From positions 170,120 through 234,119 of the forward strand of contig JBDRRF010000076.1 of assembly GCA_043825875.1 (NCBI GenBank): 64,000 bases of DNA, given 5' to 3'. Origin of the DNA: Pseudomonadota bacterium (GTDB taxonomy: Bacteria > Desulfobacterota > Desulfobacteria > Desulfobacterales > RPRI01). Every line of letters starts with the position of its first letter. Within the stretch, counting starts at the first letter, position 1. The position numbers were made by a program, and so were the translations under genes. The notes beneath the pieces are model-generated. The model was not told where the DNA came from. It was given only the letters and a program-made list of their open reading frames with translations, and did not search any database. Shown in pieces: positions 1,941 through 12,981 of this stretch.

Positions 1941-2102
1941 CCTCTATTTGTGCACAGCAATTCCCGGTGGAATAATAAACTGTCTAATATAACCATCCAA
2001 AACAAAACTGAAATTAAAGACTATAAAGATTGCTGATTTCGGGAAATTTTGCTTGACTTTATAGCCATTCTTTATTAGATAAACAATTCTTTAAAAGACT
2101 GA

Positions 2103-2178
2103 TCCCCAGTAGCTCAGCAGGTAGAGCAAGTGGCTGTTAACCACTTTGTCCGCGGTTCGAGTCCGTGCTGGGGAGCCA
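2103..2178 (+). tRNA. tRNA-Asn (GTT)
   Basis: 76 nt; acceptor stem TCCCCAG/CTGGGGA, D arm AGCTCAG..GGTAGAGC, anticodon GTT at 2136-2138, GGTTCGAGTCC T arm, encoded CCA. Confidence 0.97.
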
Positions 2179-2180
2179 AA
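2128..2180 (+). repeat. att core, left copy (within intact tRNA)
   Basis: Identical to 10414-10466 over 53 bp. Confidence 0.95.
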
Positions 2181-2189
2181 CAAATCAAG

Positions 2190-2223
2190 GGCTTAGATAA
2201 GTTTTAAATCTAAGCCTTTTTTT
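2190..2223 (+). terminator. Element-supplied intrinsic terminator for tRNA-Asn
   Basis: GGCTTAGAT...ATCTAAGCC followed by T run. Confidence 0.7.
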
Positions 2224-2244
2224 ATTCCCCACGTTATTCCCCAC
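2222..2244 (+). repeat. Putative integrase arm-type sites (2x TTATTCCCCAC)
   Basis: Same motif occurs 3x at the other end (10228-10290). Confidence 0.7.
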
Positions 2245-2260
2245 ATTTTAACTTGAAAAT

Positions 2261-2287
2261 AAAAAAAGGCGGATGAAATCACCCGCC
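2261..2287 (-). terminator. Intrinsic terminator after 164-aa ORF
   Basis: Minus strand GGCGGGTGA-TT-TCATCCGCC-TTTTTTT. Confidence 0.7.
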
Positions 2288-2331
2288 CCCTTAAATTCTT
2301 TCAAAAGCCTTTCCGGATCTTTACGCTTATT

Positions 2332-2826
2332 TTATAATGCTTTTGGTGTATTCTTCCGCCGCATTCGAAAATCATCTAAATTTAATACCGGTTCTTTTAT
2401 TTTCAAATCCTCAATTTCAATCAACAAACTATCAAAGTCTTTTAGTAAAATTTGGCAAGCTGCAACGGGTGAAATGTCTTTTTCTGCTAAATCGTTCATT
2501 CTATTTATAATGCCATTAAGAAATTTATATTTATTTAAAACTTCCGCTGAAAAAAGCGGGCCATTTCGACGCATCTTTATGGCTGCAATTATATCTTTAA
2601 AAAACATGTTTGAGTATCTATCCCGCTCGGTTCGGATATTTTTTACATAATTACGATAGGTTTTTAACGTCGATTCTTTTAATGGTTTCCCGTACTTGCT
2701 AACATGGTTTTTAAGCTTCTTTTTTATATTGATATATTTATTGATAACGTTCGTTCGGTAGTAATGTAATTTATGTTTAAGCTCAGCTTCAAGCTCATTT
2801 AAATCCATACTTTGATATTGTTTCAT
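2332..2826 (-). CDS. Hypothetical protein (164 aa, basic)
   Basis: ORF with G-rich RBS and downstream terminator; no recognised motif. Confidence 0.6.
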   Translation of the reverse strand: MKQYQSMDLNELEAELKHKLHYYRTNVINKYINIKKKLKNHVSKYGKPLKESTLKTYRNYVKNIRTERDRYSNMFFKDIIAAIKMRRNGPLFSAEVLNKYKFLNGIINRMNDLAEKDISPVAACQILLKDFDSLLIEIEDLKIKEPVLNLDDFRMRRKNTPKAL

Positions 2827-2851
2827 ATCTTACCCCCCCCTTAAAATAAAA

Positions 2852-2918
2852 AAGCCTGAAGGCGTCCCCGGTCCAGAGAACCGCTCACAATATCACTATT
2901 GCAAGTACCTTCAGGCTT
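2852..2918 (-). ncRNA. C4-like three-way-junction RNA / attenuator
   Basis: Outer stem AAGCCTGAAGG/CCTTCAGGCTT plus U run; inner CAATA-GTGA-TATTG (GNRA) and CGGT-TCTCTGG-ACCG; loop complementary to CCAGAGA at 2941-2947. Confidence 0.6.
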
Positions 2919-3002
2919 ATTTTTAATATTTGTTTTCATGTCTCTGGCTTTGGGGTTTTTATATACTTATATACGTGTATAAGCATTGTCAAGCATTATT
3001 TA

Positions 3003-3031
3003 TTGACTTTTAAGTTTTAAATCCATATAAA
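3003..3031 (+). promoter_or_regulatory. sigma70 promoter for RHH gene
   Basis: TTGACT-N17-TATAAA. Confidence 0.65.
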
Positions 3032-3038
3032 AAAAGTT

Positions 3039-3203
3039 ATGAAAGAACGAAAACCCTTCACAACAAGTTTAAACATATTGCTACTTAAAGATATTAAGAA
3101 GCTTGCAATTGACCATGACAAAGGTGTTAATGATCTTCTCGAAGAAGCTATCCGGGATATTCTAAAAAAGTATGAATTACAGTCTCAAAAACCCACCAAA
3201 TAG
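3039..3203 (+). CDS. Ribbon-helix-helix (CopG-like) DNA-binding protein, 54 aa (not in ORF track)
   Basis: MKERKPFTTSLNILLLKDIKKLAIDHDKGVNDLLEEAIRDILKKYE: beta strand followed by two helices. Confidence 0.8.
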   Translation: MKERKPFTTSLNILLLKDIKKLAIDHDKGVNDLLEEAIRDILKKYELQSQKPTK

Positions 3204-3359
3204 CATAACCTATTAACTAATTGAAATTGCTTATAATATCGGCTTAATTAGAGTCGTTTACAGCGTACTTTATGAAAAAGACATGGTTTAGCATGCCTCG
3301 TTTACGGCCGTTTTTCAGTTTTGAACCCGGATTGCTACGCTTTACCCCAAAAACAGCTT

Positions 3360-3403
3360 GGGTCCTTCCAGAGGTCTTTCGATATTAGGGGTAATTCGCA
3401 CCC
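3360..3403 (+). other. cos-like site A (cosQ-like GGGTCCT + 17 nt + 20-bp core)
   Basis: GGGTCCT 3360-3366; ATTAGGGGTAATTCGCACCC 3384-3403; perfect inverted copy of the core at 3896-3915. Confidence 0.6.
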
Positions 3404-3460
3404 GTCTATTTTTCTACATGTGATGATTTTTCATAAGTACCTAATACCATGACATAATCA

Positions 3461-3814
3461 TTAATCCCCAAATTTAAAAAAACCCAGATCATCATCTGGA
3501 TCATCATCAACGTCATCATCCGGATCATCATCAAAGCCAAATTTGTTTATATTTACAGATAGTTCAGGATAATCATAAACAAAATCTATACACGAATTAT
3601 TTTGTTTTGGCTGTTTCCGGTTTAACAGAAAGCTTTTGCGGCCCCACTCCTGCAAAGCAACTTCAAGATCAATTTTCTTTACATTTTTTATATTAACAAT
3701 AGAGTGGCTTAACTTGCCGGATTTAATCGCGGCGGAGATCCTTTGCCGTGATACTCCTATCAGCCTGGCAAATTGGCTGTTGGTTATAAAGATTCTATCT
3801 TTTTTTCGTGGCAT
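3461..3814 (-). CDS. Nu1/small-terminase-like HTH protein with acidic tail
   Basis: TNSQFARLIGVSRQRISAAIKSGKL...IDLEVALQEW resembles the TerS N-terminal HTH; lies directly downstream of cos-like site B. Confidence 0.6.
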   Translation of the reverse strand: MPRKKDRIFITNSQFARLIGVSRQRISAAIKSGKLSHSIVNIKNVKKIDLEVALQEWGRKSFLLNRKQPKQNNSCIDFVYDYPELSVNINKFGFDDDPDDDVDDDPDDDLGFFKFGD

Positions 3815-3895
3815 GGCATAACTTTTAAAAACTGCTGTTGTTTTTTCTTTAAAATTACAACCCGATTTTGTAACTTTGTGTCTAAAAAAAGGGCA

Positions 3896-3939
3896 GGGTG
3901 CGAATTACCCCTAATGGAAAAAAACTTTTAGGAGGACCC
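3896..3939 (-). other. cos-like site B
   Basis: Minus strand GGGTCCT (3939-3933), 17 nt, then ATTAGGGGTAATTCGCACCC (3915-3896). Confidence 0.6.
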
Positions 3940-3952
3940 GCACCTTTTCCGG

Positions 3953-4699
3953 TTAACTTGCGCTTAAAGTTTCAAGGTATTGGTCATGCAATTCCGGTTG
4001 ATCATGTATAACGGCACGAACAGCCTGTGCCATTGACATGTTATGTTCCGAAGAATACTGATTAACCGCTTCCATAAATGGCTCTGTCGTATGTTCTACC
4101 TTTGCCATAGGTTCACTCTTTGGCGCCTTGGCTTCATCTATCAGGTTGTTAACGTATGATTCATGCAGATCCGGGTTTTCTTCTGACACGGCACGAACAG
4201 CCTGTGCCATTGACAAGTTATGTTCTGAAGCATACTGATTAACAACGTCCATAAAAGATAGTTTGGTTTCTGTCTGGACTGAAGCTTTGCCTTCCTCTTT
4301 TTGTTTGAGACAGATATGATCCGTCCAAAGTTTCGGATATAGCTCTTGACATCTAAGCGTTGCTACGCCCTTTGATTGTTCTTGGTGTTCCCACTGATAC
4401 CTTGAAACAGCCGCCTCAAAAGTCAAAGGGATTCCACCCGGGACACCTTGCTTGCCTGTATCCTTTACTTCTTCAGGCTCAACGGCTGCATCTGTGCTTA
4501 TTAAATGGTTAAAATAACTCTCACCGTTTGGGAATTGTTTCTGAAGCTCTTTATCGCGGAAAAACTCACGATCTGCACTTATTTTTAGCAGTAATTCTGA
4601 CCCTTTAATCTCGCTCGGTTCCCCATTTTCCAGAATATGCCGATAAAAGCTTAATGCTTCCATTGTGTTTTCTGCAGGACTCAAATTATTATCCATCAT
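3953..4699 (-). CDS. Hypothetical protein with repeated ~36-aa helical module (possible scaffold-like protein)
   Basis: FMDVVNQYASEHNLSMAQAVRAVSEENPDLHESY / FMEAVNQYSSEHNMSMAQAVRAVIHDQPELHDQY; DNA repeat at 4011 and 4188. Confidence 0.7.
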   Translation of the reverse strand: MMDNNLSPAENTMEALSFYRHILENGEPSEIKGSELLLKISADREFFRDKELQKQFPNGESYFNHLISTDAAVEPEEVKDTGKQGVPGGIPLTFEAAVSRYQWEHQEQSKGVATLRCQELYPKLWTDHICLKQKEEGKASVQTETKLSFMDVVNQYASEHNLSMAQAVRAVSEENPDLHESYVNNLIDEAKAPKSEPMAKVEHTTEPFMEAVNQYSSEHNMSMAQAVRAVIHDQPELHDQYLETLSAS

Positions 4700-4710
4700 A
4701 ACCCCCTTTA

Positions 4711-5265
4711 TTAAATAAAATGTGAATGTTCGAATTTTCTAAAGACGTCATTCATTTTAAATCGCATGTTTGCATCAAGCCCGGAAAGTGCGTTGGTACT
4801 ATCGGGCAAGCATTCATCCTGAATAATTTTTGCCATGGTTTTAAAAGCTGTTTGACGCTCTTTAATGAACTCGTTTATTTCATCCACGAGCAAATCGCCA
4901 TGAGGAAGAAGCCGGTCAGTCAACTTTTTTAAGATTTGCTGATTGATTTCAAAAATCTGCTGTTCGATTGGTTTTATCTGTGAGTCAATTTCTTCGGGAA
5001 TGTCTTCATACTGCGGAAGTAATTCAAGGATACCGGTCAGCTTTTTCTGGATTTCGGGAACCTTGGCATCATTGCCATCGACAAGAAGATCTTTTATTTG
5101 TTTTTTCAAGTCTTCTGCCTGCTTCTCATATCCAAGAATAGTGTCCTCAACTTTCTTCTTCCGCTCCATAATCTGCTCTTTGTTTTTGATAAGCACCTGT
5201 TTTTGTTCAAGTTCAGTTTTTACTGCTTCAATACATTGGTCCAGACAGCTGTTCTCTTTCTCCAT
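4711..5265 (-). CDS. Hypothetical coiled-coil protein (184 aa)
   Basis: E/K/Q-rich heptads; AGGAG RBS. Confidence 0.7.
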   Translation of the reverse strand: MEKENSCLDQCIEAVKTELEQKQVLIKNKEQIMERKKKVEDTILGYEKQAEDLKKQIKDLLVDGNDAKVPEIQKKLTGILELLPQYEDIPEEIDSQIKPIEQQIFEINQQILKKLTDRLLPHGDLLVDEINEFIKERQTAFKTMAKIIQDECLPDSTNALSGLDANMRFKMNDVFRKFEHSHFI

Positions 5266-5307
5266 GGTCCAATTCTCCTATTTTGTGTAATGGTTATTAA
5301 AATTTTG

Positions 5308-5373
5308 CCGTGTGAATGTGCCGACCGGAAAGGGTTTCGGTTGCCGGGCCTCACGGTTGCCGGATTCACACGG
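5308..5373 (-). ncRNA. C4-like three-way-junction RNA
   Basis: Outer stem CCGTGTGAAT/ATTCACACGG; inner CCGG-CAA-CC-GTGA-GG-C-CCGG and ACCG..CGGT hairpins; GC-rich island in AT-rich DNA. Confidence 0.55.
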
Positions 5374-5608
5374 GCAAACTGTTTAAAGCTGTATTTGCTA
5401 AACTTATTAAAAAATTAACGTGATTTATTTCTTCTTGGTAATCATGCTTTAGCTTTTCTCTTTTCTTAAATTCTTTATAATCAAGATATCCGCTCGGCAA
5501 TTCAGAAAGCTTTGCTCTGGCATCTGCAATCCGCTTGTTATAATTTTCAAGATCAAGAACTGCTTCTTGTGTTAATTGTTCAGAAGTATAAAAAATAGTA
5601 TTCGACAT
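5366..5608 (-). CDS. Hypothetical protein (~80 aa)
   Basis: ORF MSNTIFY...; helical composition; start uncertain. Confidence 0.5.
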   Translation of the reverse strand: MSNTIFYTSEQLTQEAVLDLENYNKRIADARAKLSELPSGYLDYKEFKKREKLKHDYQEEINHVNFLISLANTALNSLPV

Positions 5609-5717
5609 TTTTACTTTTATCTTTTTTGTTTTTAAAAAAACACACAAGTGTGAATCTGGAAGATTCGCACCCTTCTTAAGACCTTCTTAAAAACATACTT
5701 ATAATACCTTCTTAGGG

Positions 5718-5840
5718 GGGAATTTTTTCCCATGTTTTGGAAAAAATCTCCCATGTTCAGGGAAAATTTTCCCGTCATTACGGGGAATTTTTTCCCATGC
5801 TCTTTTTTGATCTTATTTATTACAGGGAATTTTTTCCCAT
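5718..5840. repeat. Iteron-like array (putative origin of replication)
   Basis: Five 16-bp units of consensus GGGAATTTTTTCCCAT at 5718, 5739, 5760, 5783, 5825 (spacings 21, 21, 23, 42). Confidence 0.8.
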
Positions 5841-5849
5841 AAAAAAGCA

Positions 5850-6566
5850 TCATACCGCCACCCGATCTCTTAACTTTTGGTTTAAATAACCCGGCTTCCA
5901 ATGCTTTTTTGGAATAAGAAAAACCCGCCAAACTCTTTCGCCTTCATAGGTATCATATGGTTCAATTAAAAAGTTCTTTTGAAGGCTTTTTATAGCATCC
6001 CCCACACTTCGCCTGTTGATTCCGGCAAATTCAGCTAACCGCCCAATTTCAGCACTACACAACTCCCAGCGTCGTTTTGCAAAACGCTCTTTGAACTCAA
6101 GGTTATCATATTCAACGTTCTCATCTTCTTCGGCATCATAATATGAGAAATATCTCATTACTGGATAAAGTGCTTTTGCTGTTGGTTTGAGTTCTGACCA
6201 TGTGCCGCTTCTAATAATCCCATTATAAAAGAAGAACGACCGGCCATTTTCACCCTTTTGAGGAAATTTCAATTTATAGTACTTACCCCGTTTTCCGTGC
6301 CGGGTCAGAAAATACTCCCATGTAAACCCAGGAAAACCGTCAAGGTCTTTAATACCTTGCCGTACGGTTTTAATATCTAAGCGCGATAGTGCAGCAATTG
6401 TTTCTTGACCCGGAAATGCTTTACCGTGTTCATCACAATGACAAGCAATTACAGGAAGAACCGCCTTTGCTGCTGTTGATATATTTGACCAGTTCATATT
6501 CTCGTTCCATCTTTTATCGAAACGAAAAAACAGCGTCCAATCAATATCAGCCGAAAAATGATACAT
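5850..6566 (-). CDS. Putative replication initiator with two winged-helix-like repeats
   Basis: AFPGQETIAALSRLDIKTVRQGIKDL and IGRLAEFAGINRRSVGDAIKSL; iterons just downstream; GAGG RBS before ATG 6566. Confidence 0.65.
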   Translation of the reverse strand: MYHFSADIDWTLFFRFDKRWNENMNWSNISTAAKAVLPVIACHCDEHGKAFPGQETIAALSRLDIKTVRQGIKDLDGFPGFTWEYFLTRHGKRGKYYKLKFPQKGENGRSFFFYNGIIRSGTWSELKPTAKALYPVMRYFSYYDAEEDENVEYDNLEFKERFAKRRWELCSAEIGRLAEFAGINRRSVGDAIKSLQKNFLIEPYDTYEGERVWRVFLIPKKHWKPGYLNQKLRDRVAV

Positions 6567-6606
6567 TATTATCGCCCTCACAGCGCAACCGCCCCACAAG
6601 AAGTAA

Positions 6607-6668
6607 TCGGAAGAGAAACGAGGTGTGAGGTTCCTTGCCTATCGGCGCGCGCCGCCTATCTCTTCCGA
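6607..6668 (-). ncRNA. Structured cis-regulatory RNA (TAGGC..GCCGATA family) upstream of rep-like gene
   Basis: Outer stem TCGGAAGAGA/TCTCTTCCGA; core shared with 8285-8340; loop CCTCACA complementary to TGTGAGG RBS at 6576-6582. Confidence 0.65.
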
Positions 6669-6809
6669 AATTCAAAATCTGCAACTGGTTTTTGTTTTGG
6701 TTATTAAATGCGTCAAGTGAACGGTTTGAGCAACCCTGGGACATAGTATCAGGCTGACACATGCCGGAAGCTGAAAACCCGCTTCTTAGAACCTCTGGTG
6801 GCTTCATGC

Positions 6810-7007
6810 TTATGCACTCAACGACTTTTCAGGATCAATCCGGTGTGAGTCTATAAAAGACTCAATATCTTTAAGCCGGTATCTGACAGAACGCCCGATT
6901 TTAATAAATGGAAGTCCACGGCTCATAAAACGATCATTTCGTAAAGTGAATACGCTTTTACCGATAATTTTTGCTGCTTCTTTTTCGTTGATAATTCCTA
7001 AGCTCAT
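6810..7007 (-). CDS. AlpA/excisionase-like HTH protein
   Basis: INEKEAAKIIGKSVFTLRNDRFMSRGLPFIKIGRSVRYRLKDIESFI; AGGAG RBS. Confidence 0.85.
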   Translation of the reverse strand: MSLGIINEKEAAKIIGKSVFTLRNDRFMSRGLPFIKIGRSVRYRLKDIESFIDSHRIDPEKSLSA

Positions 7008-7051
7008 ATTTACTCTCCTTTTTTCAATGTACTTCTTTTAAAAAACAAAAA

Positions 7052-7078
7052 AGCCACAAGATTATTTATCCTGTAGCT
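7052..7078 (-). terminator. Intrinsic terminator upstream of alpA-like gene
   Basis: Minus strand AGCTACAGGAT-AAATA-ATCTTGTGGCT followed by TTTTGTTTTTT. Confidence 0.6.
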
Positions 7079-7204
7079 ATAGAGTACTACTATTTTTTTC
7101 TAAGTCAATTATTTAAAATGATTATAGGAAGTTAGCTGATATTTTAAACTTTAGAATATCAGCTTTTCTTTTGATAAATAAGAGGGTTTTACAGTTATTA
7201 AAGT

Positions 7205-8251
7205 TTAAACCCTTTTCAGGTATAATGGTATATATATTAACCGGAGAGTGTTTTCGCTGAGGTATAAGTTGAACTTTTCAATATGAACGGTATCTCTTGT
7301 TATGCTTTTAAGCAAAAAGGGGTTTCTTTTGATCTTTTGTAAAAAAGCATAAAGATCTATTGCAAAACCGCTATTGCTTTTAATCTTATAAGGTTTACTT
7401 CTCTCTTTTAATTTTATTTCACCTTTATTATTTGTAATTGCTTCATTTGCAAGAAAGTATTCTATAATTTTAAAAAGAATTTGATCTCTGGGATTAATTC
7501 TTATTTCTCGTTCTTTTTCTTTTTGCTTTATTTTTGCAATGCTTTTCTTTTTGCTTTCCAGGTATTTCTTTTCGGCTGCTGGCCGTAATTCATCACTTTC
7601 ACTCATAAACCGATGTATTAAAAATGCGTCCATTTTTGCTCTATTAATTGTTGCTGCTCGTTTTGAGTACGTTCGGGCATCTTCAAGATACTTCATAGAA
7701 GAACTATCTTCTTCAAATCTCATACCTTCCACTAAAAAACTTTTTACAGAGAATATTGCCATTTCAATAGCAAACAGATTAAACAGTGCCTCCGAATCGA
7801 TTTTTTCCCTCGCGCCTGGACTTACTCCATTAGTGCAAAGTGCCTCTCGCCATATTACCTCTTCTGGAATGCCACATTCGCCTTTCATCCCTGAATAGTT
7901 GTTACGATATCTTTTAAAAAGTGCTGCTGAAGCATTTAAACTATCCGTGTAAATAGAATCTGCTCCCCGTTTGTAAATAGCGCGTAAATCTTCAAGAAAT
8001 TTTGCAGGAAAACCGATAAGGCTTTCAATAACCTTTGAGGAAGGCCAAAGAGAATTCCCTAAGCATGGCACGTTATCTTCAAGGTGAAAACAAACAATAA
8101 AATTTGTGCGGCATTCTCTTATAATTAAAAGGCATTCTTGGAAGTATTTACTTTCAATTTCCAAAGATTCCAACCGCTGAATATCTCCAAATATCGGGCA
8201 TCGTTCATTATAAAATTCTGTTTTATAAGGATTGTTTTCAAGTTTATTCAT
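7205..8251 (-). CDS. Hypothetical accessory protein (348 aa)
   Basis: Long ORF; no recognised motif. Confidence 0.7.
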   Translation of the reverse strand: MNKLENNPYKTEFYNERCPIFGDIQRLESLEIESKYFQECLLIIRECRTNFIVCFHLEDNVPCLGNSLWPSSKVIESLIGFPAKFLEDLRAIYKRGADSIYTDSLNASAALFKRYRNNYSGMKGECGIPEEVIWREALCTNGVSPGAREKIDSEALFNLFAIEMAIFSVKSFLVEGMRFEEDSSSMKYLEDARTYSKRAATINRAKMDAFLIHRFMSESDELRPAAEKKYLESKKKSIAKIKQKEKEREIRINPRDQILFKIIEYFLANEAITNNKGEIKLKERSKPYKIKSNSGFAIDLYAFLQKIKRNPFLLKSITRDTVHIEKFNLYLSENTLRLIYIPLYLKRV

Positions 8252-8284
8252 TGCTTGTCCATTTGCAATGCGTCCTGAAATTTA

Positions 8285-8340
8285 TTGAGGGAAGCTGGCA
8301 GGACATTTCCAGCTTATCGGCCCGTCGGCCTATCCCTCAA
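8285..8340 (-). ncRNA. Structured cis-regulatory RNA (TAGGC..GCCGATA family)
   Basis: Minus strand TTGAGGGA-TAGGCCGACGGGCCGATA-AGCTGG-AAATGTCCTG-CCAGCT-TCCCTCAA. Confidence 0.65.
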
Positions 8341-8341
8341 A
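8313..8341 (+). repeat. 29-bp direct repeat, left of TA module
   Basis: CTTATCGGCCCGTCGGCCTATCCCTCAAA, identical at 9020-9048. Confidence 0.9.
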
Positions 8342-8352
8342 AGTATTTGTAA

Positions 8353-8703
8353 TCACATAAGCACCCGGTAATCAATCTTGAGTGCATCGCCAAATAACCG
8401 GGCATTTTTCCGGCCTATAACCCTTTTCCCGTTTTCCATTTCAGAAATGTGACGCTGAGGGATTCCGGTCAATTCGGAAAGTTGCCCTTGCGTCAAACCC
8501 TCTTTATGCCTTGCGCCTGATAGGGCGACACCGGGAGAATTGTCTTTAAATTCAGGAAAGGCATCTCTCCAGGGAATAGTATCCGATGCATCCTTATAGC
8601 CGATAGACTTCATCAACTTGACGGCCTTATCTTTCTCCGACACCGGCCCGGAGAACGTTAATACAATGCTTTTAGTACGGCGCTTTTTCGTGTGTTCCAG
8701 CAT
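8353..8703 (-). CDS. XRE-family HTH antitoxin (HigA-like)
   Basis: GLTQGQLSELTGIPQRHISEMENGKR; overlaps upstream toxin. Confidence 0.85.
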   Translation of the reverse strand: MLEHTKKRRTKSIVLTFSGPVSEKDKAVKLMKSIGYKDASDTIPWRDAFPEFKDNSPGVALSGARHKEGLTQGQLSELTGIPQRHISEMENGKRVIGRKNARLFGDALKIDYRVLM

Positions 8704-8953
8704 AAACAACCTCGATCAATTGTATTTCATTATCAATAATCTGCCAAACCGCAACATAGGTCGGCTGACCCTTTTTTAAATGGCAATGGTGCCTCTGATC
8801 TTTCAGTTTGCCATAATTTGGCCAGTTGCCCCTTATCGGCCCTTTGAGTTCAATCTCTCTCAACAGGGCAAAAAGAGATTTCTTCGCCCTGACAGGCAAC
8901 CGGTCAATCATCTTGTTTATCCGCCTGGGAATTACCACCTGCCATTTAATCAT
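8672..8953 (-). CDS. RelE/HigB-superfamily toxin
   Basis: GPIRGNWPNYGKL, HHCHLKKGQPTYVAVW, EVVYAGTHEKAPY; toxin precedes HTH. Confidence 0.8.
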   Translation of the reverse strand: MIKWQVVIPRRINKMIDRLPVRAKKSLFALLREIELKGPIRGNWPNYGKLKDQRHHCHLKKGQPTYVAVWQIIDNEIQLIEVVYAGTHEKAPY

Positions 8954-9019
8954 GATAATAATATACCTTTTTTTAGTATCAAATCAAGATTTATTTTTTA
9001 TCGTTTACATTTGCCGCTT

Positions 9020-9048
9020 CTTATCGGCCCGTCGGCCTATCCCTCAAA
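9020..9048 (+). repeat. 29-bp direct repeat, right of TA module (overlaps integrase stop)
   Basis: Identical to 8313-8341. Confidence 0.9.
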
Positions 9049-10213
9049 CTTCGTTTGCTGCTTTAACCTTTGATGTTTTGTTCGCTGGCTTGTTTATTAT
9101 ATCCCCTGCAAGCGCTGAGGCTCTTTTCAATGCGTCATCTCGCAAGTGTGCATACCTTTGAGTCATTAGCGGGCTCTTATGAGTCAGAAGCCTTTGCAAG
9201 GTGTATAAGTCAACTTGCCCAGAGCTTGCCAACACAGACGCATAAACATGACGGAGCCCATGCATCGGCCTAAATCCAACAGGAAGTCCAGCCTTGTTTC
9301 GGATACGGTCAACGCTTTTTCTATTCAAAGTAGTTAAATGAGATCCTTCCCTTTGCCCTGGGAAAATCCATCCATTACTTCCTGCTTTTTCTATTTTTTC
9401 TAATACAGCTAACGCAGAGCCGTTTAAAGGGATACTCTGATCTTGCCCGCCCTTTGGGTTACGGATTGTAATAAAACCCCGCTCAAAGTCAATGTCCTGC
9501 CATTTTAACCGGAATATTTCGCCCCGTCTCATGCCTGTATAAAGTGCAAGTTTCATAATACTTGCCGTTGTCTGATCTTCATCTCTCTCTAAAACAGCCA
9601 GTAAAGATTTAATCTGATATTCTGTTAGATCTTCTGTTGTTTGGTTGTTCAATCTTGGGATTTCAATTTTAAAAGTAATAGGAGAAGTCTTGCCCTTTTT
9701 CACGCCATAATTGAGAGTCCGGCGAAGGATTTCAAGCACCCTTGCTGCTGTTGTCTTATGTCCCTTTTTTAATAACCCCAAACGGAGCCGATCAACATCA
9801 AGCGGAAGAAGTTGACCCGGTTCTTTATCGCCAAGCACCTGCCTTATGTGAACATCGAATTTTCTTTTCTCCGCATTTATAATTTTATTGTATGGATTAT
9901 TTTCACAGTATGAATCCCAAAGTTTCGCAATAGTCCATCGGGTATTTACAGCTTCCTTCCTTGCCTTTTCAACTTCTCTTTTTTCTGTATTTGAAGTTTG
10001 ATTCCCTTCAATTTTTTGTGCCCGGATACGCGCTGCCTTTGCAGGAGTCATATCATCTTGGAATTGACGCCCCACTTTTTCATCAATTGCTTTCCCTGCT
10101 TTCCGATAACGGATATAATAAATCCTTTCCGGCCGGCCTGTAACTATTCCCTTGCTTTCAATATAATATACTCCAGGATATTTTGTCTTGATTCGTAAAA
10201 ATGATTTTGGCAT
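9044..10213 (-). CDS. int: Tyrosine recombinase/integrase
   Basis: LALYTGMRRGEI, HGLRH, LLTHKSPLMTQRYAH; AGAGG RBS before ATG 10213. Confidence 0.95.
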   Translation of the reverse strand: MPKSFLRIKTKYPGVYYIESKGIVTGRPERIYYIRYRKAGKAIDEKVGRQFQDDMTPAKAARIRAQKIEGNQTSNTEKREVEKARKEAVNTRWTIAKLWDSYCENNPYNKIINAEKRKFDVHIRQVLGDKEPGQLLPLDVDRLRLGLLKKGHKTTAARVLEILRRTLNYGVKKGKTSPITFKIEIPRLNNQTTEDLTEYQIKSLLAVLERDEDQTTASIMKLALYTGMRRGEIFRLKWQDIDFERGFITIRNPKGGQDQSIPLNGSALAVLEKIEKAGSNGWIFPGQREGSHLTTLNRKSVDRIRNKAGLPVGFRPMHGLRHVYASVLASSGQVDLYTLQRLLTHKSPLMTQRYAHLRDDALKRASALAGDIINKPANKTSKVKAANEV

Positions 10214-10227
10214 TTTAAACCTCTTTT

Positions 10228-10290
10228 TGTTCCCCACACTACACAATAATTATAACCACTGCTTTTTATTCCCCACACTATTCCCCACAC
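10228..10290 (+). repeat. Putative integrase arm-type sites (3x TTCCCCACAC)
   Basis: Copies at 10228-10239, 10266-10278, 10279-10290. Confidence 0.7.
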
Positions 10291-10413
10291 ATAAATTAAA
10301 TATACAGGTAATAAAAAGTAAGTCAATAAAAATAATACTCAATAATAATCTATTATTTCAAGGTATTTAATGACATAAATAAAAAGGAAGGTAAATTAAG
10401 GTAAATAGCTTAA

Positions 10414-10466
10414 AAGTGGCTGTTAACCACTTTGTCCGCGGTTCGAGTCCGTGCTGGGGAGCCAAA
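10414..10466 (+). repeat. att core, right copy (3' part of tRNA-Asn)
   Basis: Identical to 2128-2180. Confidence 0.95.
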
Positions 10467-10472
10467 AATTAT

Positions 10473-10502
10473 AGCCCGTTCATTAATTGAGCGGGCTTTT
10501 TT
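10473..10502 (+). terminator. Probable original tRNA-Asn terminator
   Basis: AGCCCGTTCA-TTAAT-TGAGCGGGCT-TTTTT. Confidence 0.75.
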
Positions 10503-10616
10503 ATTGGATTTTATCATGTGATACGTATATATTAGTAATAGTTACGGTTTATAAATAACTTATGTTTTCGGAAATGCGTTCAATCCCATAAGGATGTATT
10601 GAAAAACCAAAATGGG

Positions 10617-10659
10617 AAAAGACGGAAATCGATACGAATTCAAATTCCCGTCTTTTTTT
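10617..10659. terminator. Probable terminator at end of cytochrome operon
   Basis: AAAAGACGGAAAT...ATTCCCGTCTTTT. Confidence 0.5.
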
Positions 10660-10662
10660 GTT

Positions 10663-11349
10663 TTATACTTCTTCAGCAGATGCGCTTTCAGAACATAATC
10701 CGCGAGATGCTTTTTCCCAATCTTCTACTTCTTCGCCTTCTTCGATTTCTTCCCACCCGGTAATCATGGCCTTTATATGTGCAAAAATTGAGTGGCCGGT
10801 TGTAGTCATATAAACATGCACAACGATAAACGCGAGGATGGAGAATGCTCCGGCCAAATGAATCAGCGCCACAACGTTTAAAGAAAGAAAATCAAGTCCC
10901 CAACTCTCCCAGGAATTATATGTCCAGTAGAAAATTCCCGTGAACATCTGGATGGGCAAAAGCATTGCTGCCAGAAAGAGATAGGTCAGTCGTTGTAATG
11001 GATTGTGTTTGGCGCCTTTTCGTTTCGGCACCGGGTGCGATTCGCCTTTAAAAATACCAAAACCATAGTAATGTACGACCTCCAACAGCTTTTTTGTAGT
11101 TGGAATATACTGTTTCCATTCACCGGTCGTAAATATCCAGAACACGAAAAACGCAAAAGCAATCAGCCAGGTAATGCCAAGGAAATTATGCACCTCAACA
11201 GCCCGTTCAAAACCAATTAGCGAGTAAACACCGTGGATTTCAAAACCTGTTATAAGCAGCAAAAAGATCAGAAGCATTTGCAGCCAGTGCCAGAAACGCT
11301 CGTAGCGGGTGTACAGATAGGTGGTTATAAGTTTTATTGAATGCATCAA
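10663..11349 (-). CDS. Cytochrome b (Ni/Fe-hydrogenase/PhsC-like b-type subunit)
   Basis: ERFWHWLQ, TGFEIHG, HNPLQRLTY, HVYMTTTG, AMITGWE. Confidence 0.9.
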   Translation of the reverse strand: MMHSIKLITTYLYTRYERFWHWLQMLLIFLLLITGFEIHGVYSLIGFERAVEVHNFLGITWLIAFAFFVFWIFTTGEWKQYIPTTKKLLEVVHYYGFGIFKGESHPVPKRKGAKHNPLQRLTYLFLAAMLLPIQMFTGIFYWTYNSWESWGLDFLSLNVVALIHLAGAFSILAFIVVHVYMTTTGHSIFAHIKAMITGWEEIEEGEEVEDWEKASRGLCSESASAEEV

Positions 11350-12981
11350 TTACTCCTCCTTCTTACGACCATTGGTAAAGATCCTGCCCAGAGCGTGGAG
11401 AACAATACCACCAAATGAACATAGAACAATGGCCCATCCGGCAAAGTCGATAATATTGACTTTGTCGCGTCCCGGCATATAAAACCCAGCCAGATTGGCC
11501 AGACGGCTGTCAGGCCGTGTGTGACACTGACTGCATTTCAGCGCTTCTTCCCTGGGAGAAACCATATGGGTGCTTGGAAAAACATAGGCAGTTTCTACAA
11601 AGTCAATTTTGCCGCTAAATGGCAGATCCAGATATTTTGCGCCCCGCTGAATGGAATCCTGCCAGTCAAAAGTGGTCCAGTATCCATGTTCTCCTGATAA
11701 AAGCGGCGTTGTCATTGTTTTGTTTACCGTGTCATAGGGCTGTTTGCCCGAATGAATATTAAAGGGGAAAATACGTGCGTTTTTATCATTACGATTTCCA
11801 TTCGGCCAGGCCAGTTTGACTATCTTGCTCGGATCAATCATATCTTTGGCTGTGACCCCTTTGATGGAACCGTTGAACCACAGATATTTTGGGATCACAT
11901 TTTTTTCCCATTTTGTATCTCCTTTGGTCGTTTGATATACGGGCTTTCCGAAAGGACCGTATACATCATAAGGCTTTCCGTCTTTTTTCTTTCCTGCCTT
12001 GGACCAGTCCCACCATCTTTGAACAGGTAAAACTTTCGCAATAACAGGAACATGACAGGCCTGACATGCAACCTTGTCCGTATGGTCATTCATTTTACTG
12101 CTTAACGCATGAGGCTTGTCACTGTGACAGGATTCACACATAATTTTGGGTTCAAGATCGTGCTCAAGAAGGCTGTGACGCGTTTCAGAAGCCGGTGTTC
12201 CGTAAATCCTTCCTGCAACATGGTGCGCAATGGTTGTATGGCATCTGGTGCACTCAAAATCCTGGCCATCATATCCCATATGAACATCGAGTTCTTTGTT
12301 GGGATTAATTAAAGAAGGATCCAGATCACCATGCTTAACACCATCTCCACCTCCACCGGAAAAATGACAGGTACCGCAGTTTTTGCGCGTTGGGCGTCCG
12401 ATACTCTGGACAACTTCGTGGATTTCAGCCTGAGCGTCTTTGGCAAGAGCTTTTTCTTCCGGATCTTTTGACTCAGCAAAATACTTATAATCTCCAAAAA
12501 CCTCTTCCCAGTTGATTTTTTTCCGGCCATGACATTTCAGACAATCGATTTCTGTTTTCTTGCCTTCCTCATTCCATCCAATGTGACATTCGTTGCAGTG
12601 ATGATCATTCATTGCATTGGCTGAAATACAAAAATTGTTTACCGAATATCCGGCCTTGCCCATTTTATTATCCTTTGGTGAATTGGGATCAAGCCACGTC
12701 CAGTGAAGCGTTTTTTTCAACTGGTTGGCCGCTTCTGTATGGCATGAAAGACAGGCTTTACTGATTTCGGGTCCTGATGTAAAATTTTGATTCAATGCTT
12801 TAAACTGTGAATGATCAGCTGTGGTAGTATTCTTTGCTTCTTTAACTACCTGCCGGGCAAGTTCCAAACCGGGTGCATCCTGATCCTGATTTGCAAATAA
12901 AAGTGTAGACGCAAAAAACAGGAAACATATCCACAGGAAGAATAATACATAACTTTTATGTGTTAATTTAAACCTCATCAT
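11350..12981 (-). CDS. Octaheme c-type cytochrome, tetrathionate reductase (OTR) family
   Basis: Eight CxxCH (CLSCH, CNECH, CLKCH, CGTCH, CTRCH, CESCH, CQACH, CSQCH), NNFC, GGGGDGVKHGDLD; signal peptide and C-terminal TM helix. Confidence 0.92.
   Translation of the reverse strand: MMRFKLTHKSYVLFFLWICFLFFASTLLFANQDQDAPGLELARQVVKEAKNTTTADHSQFKALNQNFTSGPEISKACLSCHTEAANQLKKTLHWTWLDPNSPKDNKMGKAGYSVNNFCISANAMNDHHCNECHIGWNEEGKKTEIDCLKCHGRKKINWEEVFGDYKYFAESKDPEEKALAKDAQAEIHEVVQSIGRPTRKNCGTCHFSGGGGDGVKHGDLDPSLINPNKELDVHMGYDGQDFECTRCHTTIAHHVAGRIYGTPASETRHSLLEHDLEPKIMCESCHSDKPHALSSKMNDHTDKVACQACHVPVIAKVLPVQRWWDWSKAGKKKDGKPYDVYGPFGKPVYQTTKGDTKWEKNVIPKYLWFNGSIKGVTAKDMIDPSKIVKLAWPNGNRNDKNARIFPFNIHSGKQPYDTVNKTMTTPLLSGEHGYWTTFDWQDSIQRGAKYLDLPFSGKIDFVETAYVFPSTHMVSPREEALKCSQCHTRPDSRLANLAGFYMPGRDKVNIIDFAGWAIVLCSFGGIVLHALGRIFTNGRKKEE

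Follow-up and report, generated by a model that had tools for sequence, protein, structure and literature searches.

What kind of mobile element has settled in the only tRNA gene of a 64,000-nt stretch of DNA (contig JBDRRF010000076.1; hereafter the window, with positions counted from its first letter) from a sulfate-reducer-type bacterium of the Desulfobacterota? The region in question, positions 2128–10466, is with near certainty an intact integrative element with its own replication initiator and origin, and an earlier note on this DNA had read it as a satellite similar to the phage-inducible chromosomal islands (PICIs). Our analysis arrives at the same reading as, on balance, the probable one: the island would be a PICI-like phage satellite, with a mobilisation that the contigs leave unproven. 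We regard this as the best single explanation because the gene order is PICI-like, structural genes are missing and the Rep family is shared with capsid-bearing mini-elements, and above all because a protease-less copy of the tail of a phage head protease lies beside a gene for a helix-turn-helix (HTH) protein of the small terminase (TerS) type.

The boundaries of the island are sharply defined. ARAGORN places tRNA-Asn(GTT), the integration target and sole tRNA within the window, at 2103–2178 on the plus strand (Rfam tRNA, 65.3 bits). A repeat search found the two attachment (att) sites that the earlier note had described as perfect 53-bp repeats, and they are indeed 100% identical: attL at 2128–2180, which consists of the 3′ part of the tRNA gene plus 2 nt, and attR at 10414–10466. 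The island proper between them (2181–10413) measures 8,233 bp and is single-copy in its 4.77-Mb genome. Its flanks are housekeeping DNA, with ptsI and smpB on the left and, on the right, genes for a cytochrome b and for an octaheme cytochrome of the tetrathionate-reductase type. The same note had suggested looking for an empty tRNA-Asn site in relatives, and an exact one is present on contig 16 of the congener G008, where the tRNA-Asn region (69300–69452, 97% identical to window 2029–2180) directly abuts 69453–70385 (96% identical to window 10467–11400); the junction is visible base for base in alignment A3. Because the att repeats are perfect and the empty site is exact, a discrete and recently integrated element is supported. 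A tyrosine integrase, encoded by int at 9044–10246 on the minus strand (PF00589 Phage_integrase, 4.7e-30; phrog_1, 2.5e-55), inserted the island into the 3′ end of tRNA-Asn, duplicating 53 bp. Two tandem TTATTCCCCAC sites at 2222–2244 and three further TTATTCCCCAC-type sites between int and attR at 10227–10288, all found by pattern search on the plus strand, are putative arm-type sites that the integrase may bind; the window holds seven matches to this pattern against 1.5 expected, and five of the seven lie at the island ends. A hairpin followed by a T-run (~2187–2222) is located just upstream of the tandem sites.

In two congeners, about 65 bp following tRNA-Asn resemble the attL end of the island, including the hairpin and ATTCCCCAC sites, and then give way to ordinary chromosomal genes (G011, L042 2185–2260, G011:C60; G013, L043 2253–2330, G013:C91). 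No integrase or second att copy was found in the remainder of these contigs, and the stretches may be scars of related islands. Elements of this kind may thus decay at tRNA-Asn, and the island itself could be a decayed remnant of a small prophage or capsid-forming island that has lost its capsid, portal and terminase genes, with the repeat protein described below left over from a protease or scaffold. We judge such a history unlikely. It fits less well because the repeats are perfect and the genes intact: the integrase, Rep and all listed open reading frames (ORFs) are uninterrupted. The genes are also tightly packed, without pseudogene-like gaps, and the empty site in G008 speaks for a recent arrival of the 8.2-kb unit in its present form.

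Nearly all island genes lie on the minus strand, in the order that had been described before and that ORF calls and family scans now bear out. Among the 14 island ORFs, scanned against Pfam, PHROGs and NCBIfam, there is no match to capsid, large terminase (TerL), tail or lysis families, as the earlier note had stated, and none to the genes that are 'forbidden' in PICIs (tail, holin, portal, head–tail connector). PADLOC was scanned as well and returned just coiled-coil noise and HTH matches, nothing convincing.

The clearest pointer to phages is the 248-aa repeat protein (3953–4699, minus strand). A phmmer search of 1.84 billion representative sequences returned 30 proteins at E <= 0.001, and 27 of these were family-scanned, leaving out the protein itself and two giants of ~3,700 aa. 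Ten of the 27 match head-maturation protease PHROGs (phrog_53 or phrog_3244), and a Peptidase_S49 domain was recognised in five; no head-protease match was obtained for the remaining 17, most of which are small (98–196 aa). In four full-length S49 proteins the stretch matching the repeat protein is C-terminal to the S49 domain (for example, protease 131–277 and match 388–475 in P0070, and protease 122–265 and match 292–394 in P0087). The two giants, P0064 and P0065, contain 13–14 matched stretches of the motif. According to alignment A2, residues 146–245 of the repeat protein comprise two copies of F..V..Y....CS..A......P.LH..Y, with F149, A167, P176 and H179 near-invariant in one copy and F208, A226 and P235 in the next, and a third, degenerate copy occupies approximately residues 92–130. 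AlphaFold2 models each C-terminal repeat as a three-helix unit (predicted local distance difference test score, pLDDT, 95–98), while the N-terminal half is poorly modelled. Pfam detects neither a Peptidase_S49 match nor any protease domain in the protein. As judged from these alignments, its C-terminal half is the module known elsewhere from the C-terminal end of S49 head-maturation proteases of phages, which strengthens what the earlier note had listed simply as a repeat protein.

In phage lambda, the C-terminal part of gpC is the Nu3 scaffold, and the tail of the HK97 protease (gp4) targets the protease into the procapsid. The island repeats resemble the lambda gpC/Nu3 and HK97 gp4-type proteases in that they are homologous to the segment that follows Peptidase_S49 in phage head-maturation proteases; unlike those proteases, the island protein has no protease domain, and its gene stands alone in an element that lacks a capsid gene. 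A further parallel is the SaPI (Staphylococcus aureus pathogenicity island) protein CpmB, which acts as an alternative internal scaffold. As with CpmB, a small satellite protein would take over that end of a helper head-assembly protein which docks to the capsid, and redirect procapsid assembly. The island module differs from CpmB in being an S49 protease repeat tail in two to three copies, and it has no sequence relation to it. That the module is normally part of a full head protease would suit a decayed prophage, but the N-terminal 145 residues are not a truncated S49 domain (no Peptidase_S49 match) and hold the third degenerate repeat.

The repeat-protein gene is flanked by two genes that may act with it. 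Twelve nucleotides upstream and in the same orientation lies a 184-aa coiled-coil ORF (4711–5265, minus strand), for which only weak coiled-coil-type matches were obtained. Downstream is the gene for a 117-aa HTH protein with an acidic C-terminal tail (3461–3814, minus strand), which the earlier note had called TerS-like. The name is justified as far as the N-terminal HTH goes, where the protein matches phrog_57, a terminase small subunit family, at 4.7e-6; the match covers residues 7–67 only, Phage_Cox competes for the same residues, and a database search found no homologues that could extend it. Its single-sequence AlphaFold2 model is unusable (pLDDT 42.5), and tblastn of GenBank phages with this protein and with the repeat protein gave no match. 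A perfect 20-nt inverted repeat brackets the HTH gene, with its left arm, GGGTGCGAATTACCCCTAAT, at 3384–3403 (wider arm 3360–3416) and its right arm at 3896–3915 (wider arm 3883–3939) in the promoter region of the gene; none is expected in shuffled sequence, and the 20-nt arms sit inside 57-nt arms that are 75% complementary. Two cohesive-end (cos)-like sites had been proposed here. They are real as sequence, in the form of this repeat (the right arm being the first of the two sites and the left arm the second), but the cos label is unsupported. Mimicry of a cos site was also considered and rejected, as no island segment recurs elsewhere in the genome beyond matches of <=25 nt.

The small HTH gene and its inverted repeats might instead form an autoregulated repressor, an excisionase or a Cox-type switch with no part in packaging, and the late operon would then have an unrelated function. 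We take this to be a real possibility that nonetheless falls somewhat short of an even chance. The residues matched by phrog_57 are also matched by Phage_Cox (1e-3) and by PHROGs for excisionases and transcriptional regulators, and one arm of the inverted repeat lies in the HTH gene's own promoter region. TerS proteins normally have an oligomerisation region, and the 117-aa protein is without the region typical of them. The best PHROG match, on the other hand, is the TerS family, and a phrog_57-type protein takes a similar place relative to a protease gene in two larger elements.

These two elements came from a search of the phylum with alignment A2, in which the repeat domain was found in 3 of 400 other genomes. 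One of the three, G392, contains two copies, both of them within S49 proteases encoded by tRNA-bounded elements (G392-C1, G392:C1:857987-875737, and G392-C2, G392:C2:2003423-2023995, spanned by L160–L165). One element is 17.7 kb long with 50-bp repeats at tRNA-Arg, and the other 20.5 kb with 55-bp repeats at tRNA-Pro. Both encode an integrase, a Rep or DnaD-like protein together with DnaB, the S49 protease, a coiled-coil ORF of ~200 aa, nucleases and a phrog_57-type HTH protein (177 and 202 aa), the latter in the same position relative to the protease gene as in the island. At the thresholds used, TerL, portal, capsid and tail families are not matched by any ORF of either element. One of them carries an ORF for a ribbon-helix-helix (RHH) protein near attL. 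Atlas returned unnamed clusters only for the 355-aa ORF of G392-C1, and one of the elements contains a DUF3800-VIII RNA (L161 12281–12344). Compared gene by gene, the trio of protease repeats, coiled coil and phrog_57 HTH protein mirrors the coiled coil, repeat protein and HTH gene of the island. Direct similarity between the late genes of the island and of G392 is modest: the 117-aa HTH protein is 44–52% identical to the phrog_57-type proteins over 25–27 aa, and the island coiled coil is 28% identical over 74 aa to the ORF beside the G392-C2 protease (E 7e-4) and shows no similarity to the coiled-coil ORF of G392-C1.

The replication module is the second part of the island with informative relatives. 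Rep (5850–6599, minus strand; 238 aa from the ATG at 6566) is an HTH_36 initiator (PF13730, 1.4e-13, 50.9 bits against a cut-off of 25; phrog_1032, replication initiation protein, 5e-10). Ten nucleotides past its stop codon begins an array of five ~21-nt iteron units with the palindromic core GGGAAAAAATTCCC (5718–5840); three exact cores and one copy with two mismatches were scored at 5718–5838, and the fifth unit is more degenerate and was read by eye. From its position beside Rep, the array is a putative origin of replication (ori), and at the sequence level the arrangement of an initiator gene beside tandem direct repeats is that of an iteron-controlled Rep replicon. Pfam and PHROGs detect no primase or helicase domain among the island ORFs. 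The reading of an HTH-type Rep with iterons in place of a primase thus holds, and the pair is a functional analogue only of the PICI primase-replicase.

In a collection of 5.8 billion proteins, Rep has 53 protein clusters, one of which is Rep itself; its relatives in named genomes all come from Desulfobacterota-type organisms, and the family sits mostly beside integrases. On the Desulfosarcina variabilis chromosome (L061, 7179–17624), a 10.4-kb unit with 60-bp repeats at tRNA-Leu has the order int, 252 aa, 130 aa, Rep, 135 aa, TerL, capsid, portal, 212 aa. Its capsid-family protein has 572 aa, the unit has no tail genes, and it looks like a capsid-forming PICI-like element. In Desulforhopalus singaporensis (L059), tRNA-Leu is followed by int, a 75-aa ORF, AlpA (PF05930, 4.6e-20) and Rep, and at L095 a Phage_capsid gene lies downstream of Rep. 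An integrase was found near Rep in 16 of 80 metagenome loci; absences in these loci weigh little because many of the contigs are shorter than 3 kb. The 86-aa ORF that overlaps the Rep start in the island (6547–6807, minus strand) is weakly conserved upstream of Rep in relatives, with tblastn matches of 36–44% identity directly upstream of Rep in 8 of the 80 loci. Viral contigs gave no match to Rep alone and one distant locus (29%) to a Rep alignment. The capsid genes of L095 and the TerL, capsid and portal genes of L061, retained alongside the same Rep family, could speak for loss of such genes from the island, which would fit the decayed remnant considered above.

The main rival to a satellite is a phage-independent integrative replicon, that is, an integrated plasmid-like element, or a genomic or defence island of small size, that would excise, replicate from its iterons and be passed on by transformation, in vesicles or through mobilisation by a conjugative element, and in which the phage-like pieces are incidental acquisitions. 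A member of the Rep family is encoded on a 10.7-kb circular plasmid (L101) together with RepA_C, ParA and a resolvase, and at other Rep loci a reverse transcriptase, a methyltransferase or CRISPR-Cas genes adjoin int and Rep. The metagenome contig in question has 10,826 bp and also encodes a Rap1a immunity protein; it is probably circular because of its 127-nt terminal overlap, and by gene content it looks like a small plasmid. An independent replicon would also be in keeping with the contents of the island's accessory slot, a toxin-antitoxin-like cassette and an orphan ORF, with the failure to find a helper prophage in the genome and with the unproven TerS identity. Family scans of the 14 ORFs, however, found no relaxase, oriT-type protein, partition or conjugation gene; the protease-tail repeat protein would serve no obvious purpose except in head assembly; modules of the same type are present in the G392 elements; and two Rep relatives occur with capsid genes. 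We therefore consider this replicon unlikely, though less so than a decayed prophage.

A third line of resemblance to PICIs comes from the region between int and the regulator. The earlier note had postulated an RNA-control element, and one was found by Rfam: an int-alpA RNA motif (RF02996) at 8273–8340 on the minus strand, scoring 39.3 bits against a gathering score of 35.8 (E 1.8e-5, model positions 1–71). Its minimum-free-energy fold reproduces the consensus (z −2.67), it is the sole copy in the genome, and it ends in AGGA, 21 nt upstream of a 348-aa orphan ORF (7205–8251, minus strand), whose leader it would be. A mini-ORF of four codons, MDKQ (8251–8265, minus strand), lies between the AGGA and the 348-aa ORF, and its stop codon overlaps the start codon of the latter (ATGA). 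For the 348-aa ORF, a search of 5.8 billion proteins returned only the protein itself, no family was found, and its Atlas model (pLDDT 0.46) gave no usable structural match. Beyond it and a terminator-like hairpin (7078–7052, terminator scan) lies the gene for a 65-aa HTH_17 protein of the AlpA or excisionase (recombination directionality factor) type (6810–7007, minus strand). It matches PF12728 (2.4e-6; 28.1 bits against a cut-off of 27), phrog_66 (excisionase/regulator, 3.5e-5) and, weakly, the recombination directionality factor RdfS (PDB 8dgl, E 0.049). The Phage_AlpA profile of Pfam was not reached by this protein; its equivalents in the related loci L059 and L179 do match PF05930.

Between int and the RNA lies a toxin-antitoxin-like cassette (8353–8953), so classed from its sequence matches. 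It consists of a 118-aa Xre/HTH_3 ORF (8353–8709, minus strand) and a 93-aa ORF (8672–8953, minus strand), whose genes overlap and are adjacent in the loci of at least seven relatives. Of the toxin-antitoxin pair claimed earlier, whose order resembles that of HigBA, one half is antitoxin-like, with HTH_3 at 5.7e-8 and the TIGR03070 antitoxin subfamily at 2.1e-8, the latter below its cut-off. The candidate toxin, the 93-aa ORF upstream, matches no named family: Pfam, NCBIfam, PADLOC and PDB yielded nothing and PHROGs only phrog_32175, a family without an assigned function. The cassette is bracketed by a perfect 29-nt direct repeat (8313–8341 and 9020–9048), which equals the 5′ part (first 29 nt) of the int-alpA RNA and whose upstream copy spans the integrase stop codon. 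Because the cassette thereby lies between a truncated and a complete copy of the RNA motif, it looks like an insertion into an original int–RNA junction. No partial second RNA copy was seen in 15 other motif-bearing loci.

Of 151 genomes from the phylum, 18 (the island's own, G000, included) have an int-alpA RNA that scores above cut-off, as against none of 14 control genomes. Fourteen motif loci (L169–L182) were inspected. The integrase ends just upstream in the same orientation in six of them; an ORF of 262–381 aa without a Pfam family starts at the 3′ end of the motif in seven; an HTH_17 or AlpA ORF follows the variable ORF in four; and an HTH_3 gene or toxin-antitoxin pair lies directly upstream of the motif in three. 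Thus, the order seen in the island, int, (toxin-antitoxin), RNA, variable ORF, alpA, recurs in the phylum. BLASTP showed no similarity between the 348-aa ORF and the ORFs after the motif in other loci, and one weak pair only among the latter. Because these ORFs have no Pfam family and yield just this weak pair, the position after the RNA is, as far as sequence comparison across the 14 loci can tell, a hypervariable one-gene slot. In a metagenome locus (L144), the motif (54.9 bits) is found directly upstream of a Rep gene, and the integrase is 43% identical to that of the island. The island agrees with RF02996 in its score, its consensus fold and its place between an integrase and an alpA-type gene; it differs in the non-conserved ORF of ~260–380 aa between RNA and alpA, a feature that it shares with the seven phylum loci, and in the toxin-antitoxin-like cassette that stands between int and the RNA, where 29 nt of the RNA's 5′ end are duplicated.

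How far does all this make the island a PICI? In a published survey, PICIs are defined by five core components, namely an integrase, regulation (alpA, merR or stl), a primase-replicase, capsid morphogenesis and a small terminase, and more than 99.9% of them occur in Proteobacteria or Firmicutes (de Sousa et al, 2023, NAR, PMC10085698). As described there, accessory genes of PICIs sit where the island has its variable ORF. The int, regulator and replication order of Gram-negative PICIs, which the earlier note had recognised, is supported: like these elements (e.g. EcCICFT073; PMC10085698), the island has an integrase at one end, an accessory slot between int and the regulator, and a small, putatively AlpA-type HTH regulator followed by replication and then a candidate module for helper capsids and packaging. 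It is likewise smaller than 15 kb and lacks tail, holin, portal and connector genes. Unlike the Gram-negative PICIs, it uses an HTH_36 iteron-binding initiator instead of a primase-replicase, its regulator matches HTH_17 and not the Phage_AlpA profile, its capsid-morphogenesis candidate is a mimic of a head-protease C-terminus and not an enterobacterial gene, and its TerS is only putative (HTH match). Its host phylum, moreover, lies outside the Proteobacteria and Firmicutes of the surveyed PICIs. The island would therefore work like a PICI and is not filed as a member, because, with the integrase present, a primase-replicase is absent and the regulator, TerS and capsid-morphogenesis genes are candidates only. 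With the capsid-forming PICIs (cf-PICIs) it shares integration in a tRNA gene and, through L061 with its TerL, capsid and portal and no tail, the Rep family; unlike them, it has no capsid, portal, TerL or head–tail adaptor/connector genes of its own by family scans. The psu-delta-sid operon, alpha primase and epsilon of P4-like satellites were not matched by Pfam or PHROGs among the 14 ORFs.

Several observations weigh against a satellite. Although the host genome is 99.8% complete (118 contigs), it has no match to TerL_ATPase, Terminase_6N, TerL_nuclease, Phage_portal or Phage_capsid, and no helper was found; phrog_53 is uninformative in this genome, as it matches in all 14 control genomes. 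The lack of island segments recurring elsewhere in this genome, mentioned with the cos-like sites, points the same way. Sequencing runs were compared at the level of assembled contigs, and in the probable source run the island contig has a depth of 26.5 against 27.6 and 27 for its flanks, with no sign of excision or amplification. The earlier note's satellite thus keeps its gene order and its lack of structural genes, and no evidence for a helper, excision or packaging was found. The Rep family is not confined to mobile elements with phage genes: besides the plasmid L101, seven loci of Desulfocapsaceae, Desulfobulbaceae and related metagenome-assembled genomes (L062–L068, near position 10000) carry a Rep paralogue (35–38% identity) as a non-mobile gene of the chromosome. 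There it lies in a conserved neighbourhood, downstream of mfd and of a gene for a HAD hydrolase and close to a gene of the acetyl-CoA synthetase type; neither an integrase nor a tRNA is nearby, and the paralogue may be a domesticated initiator. As for the late genes, a docking role of the protease C-terminal repeats is argued by analogy with lambda gpC/Nu3 and HK97 gp4; a BFVD fold search with the repeat-protein model returned nothing at E <= 0.001; and the 117-aa protein, with Phage_Cox and excisionase profiles competing and the terminase match drawn from the HTH only, may be TerS-like or Cox/Xis-like. The coiled-coil, HTH, 164-aa and 348-aa proteins are without relatives, and none of them was found in the 80 Rep-related metagenome loci; among 400 other genomes of the phylum, the coiled-coil and 164-aa proteins occur in none.

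An 8,291-bp Logan contig, which spans 2153–10443, and an 8,276-bp contig of a Rep relative had first suggested free circles. The former was rejected as a circle because an assembly graph would break inside the att repeats, where both of its ends lie, and because its depth equals that of the flanks. A 'joint' of 4944 to 10658 in run X1 (side 23, depth 165) is shorter than the 30-letter guide and was attributed to a repeat from another organism. In runs X2 and X3, marine or seawater metagenomes of equal size that possibly represent one data set filed twice, fragments at depths of 3.6–6.3 are ~88–100% identical to parts of 3232–6217 and 8814–8919, covering the intergenic repeat arm, the repeat protein, the iterons, Rep and the 93-aa ORF; therefore, a close relative of the island exists elsewhere.

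The remaining features of the island are less telling. A small ORF between the iterons and the coiled-coil gene (5366–5647, minus strand; 93 aa from a TTG start or 80 aa from the ATG at 5608) has no family, and a long imperfect hairpin with 25-nt arms separates it from the coiled-coil gene (5303–5378, minus strand; RNA fold −30.7 kcal/mol, z −2.5). The only plus-strand gene (3039–3203) encodes a 54-aa Arc-like RHH protein, a candidate repressor (phrog_3180, 1.5e-6; Antitox_RHH, 2.4e-5), and an RHH ORF is similarly positioned in the G392-C1 element. Last of the leftward genes is a 164-aa ORF (2332–2826, minus strand) without a family, followed by a terminator-like hairpin (2292–2263, terminator scan). 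Congener G011 harbours a second compact element of 7.4 kb with 46-bp repeats at tRNA-Val (L044; G011:C203, 4593–12075). It encodes a 178-aa ORF, an HTH_17 protein, a 330-aa ORF, an AAA_25 helicase with a winged HTH, a SHOCT protein and an integrase, as well as homologues of the 5366–5647 ORF (54% identical) and the RHH protein (48%). PDB sequence searches with A1, A2, the HTH and coiled-coil proteins, the 93-aa ORF and the HTH_17 ORF gave weak winged-HTH matches and RdfS only.

If the island is a phage satellite, its genes suggest the following cycle. Helper phage infection, or the lifting of repression by the RHH protein, would act as the trigger; the HTH_17 protein and the integrase would excise the element, and Rep would fire the iteron origin. 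The late operon, with its coiled coil, protease-tail mimic and small HTH protein, would then act on helper head assembly. The mimic might enter or remodel helper procapsids through its docking repeats of the protease or scaffold type, and the HTH protein, bound to the 20-bp inverted repeats bracketing its own gene, might mark island DNA for packaging by the helper terminase. The toxin-antitoxin-like cassette and the 348-aa ORF would be cargo of the accessory slot between int and the regulator, serving stabilisation and possibly defence.

More tentatively, and as a compound proposal that we hold to be rather less probable than not, the island and the two G392 elements could represent an undescribed satellite lineage of sulfate-reducer-type bacteria in which helpers are hijacked via the head protease, and not by way of the capsid, a Sid-like protein or TerS only. 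While an S49 protease of their own would come with the larger elements, the 8.2-kb one would have been reduced to a protease-less decoy of capsid-docking repeats that loads into helper procapsids, resizing them or blocking their maturation. The int-alpA RNA would then be the leader of a hypervariable slot for anti-phage cargo, here the 348-aa ORF.

A full-text literature search found no paper on a phage satellite together with Desulfobacterota. If the island is indeed a satellite, the PICI lifestyle would extend to anaerobic bacteria of sediment and groundwater, with a new satellite replication module made up of an HTH_36 initiator and iterons, and the docking repeats of the head-maturation protease would suggest a new handle for hijacking. 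The int-alpA motif, of which the main text of Weinberg et al (2017, NAR, PMC5737381) makes no mention, would gain a defined context as the leader of a variable gene between int and alpA, and the function of this orphan RNA would therefore become testable.

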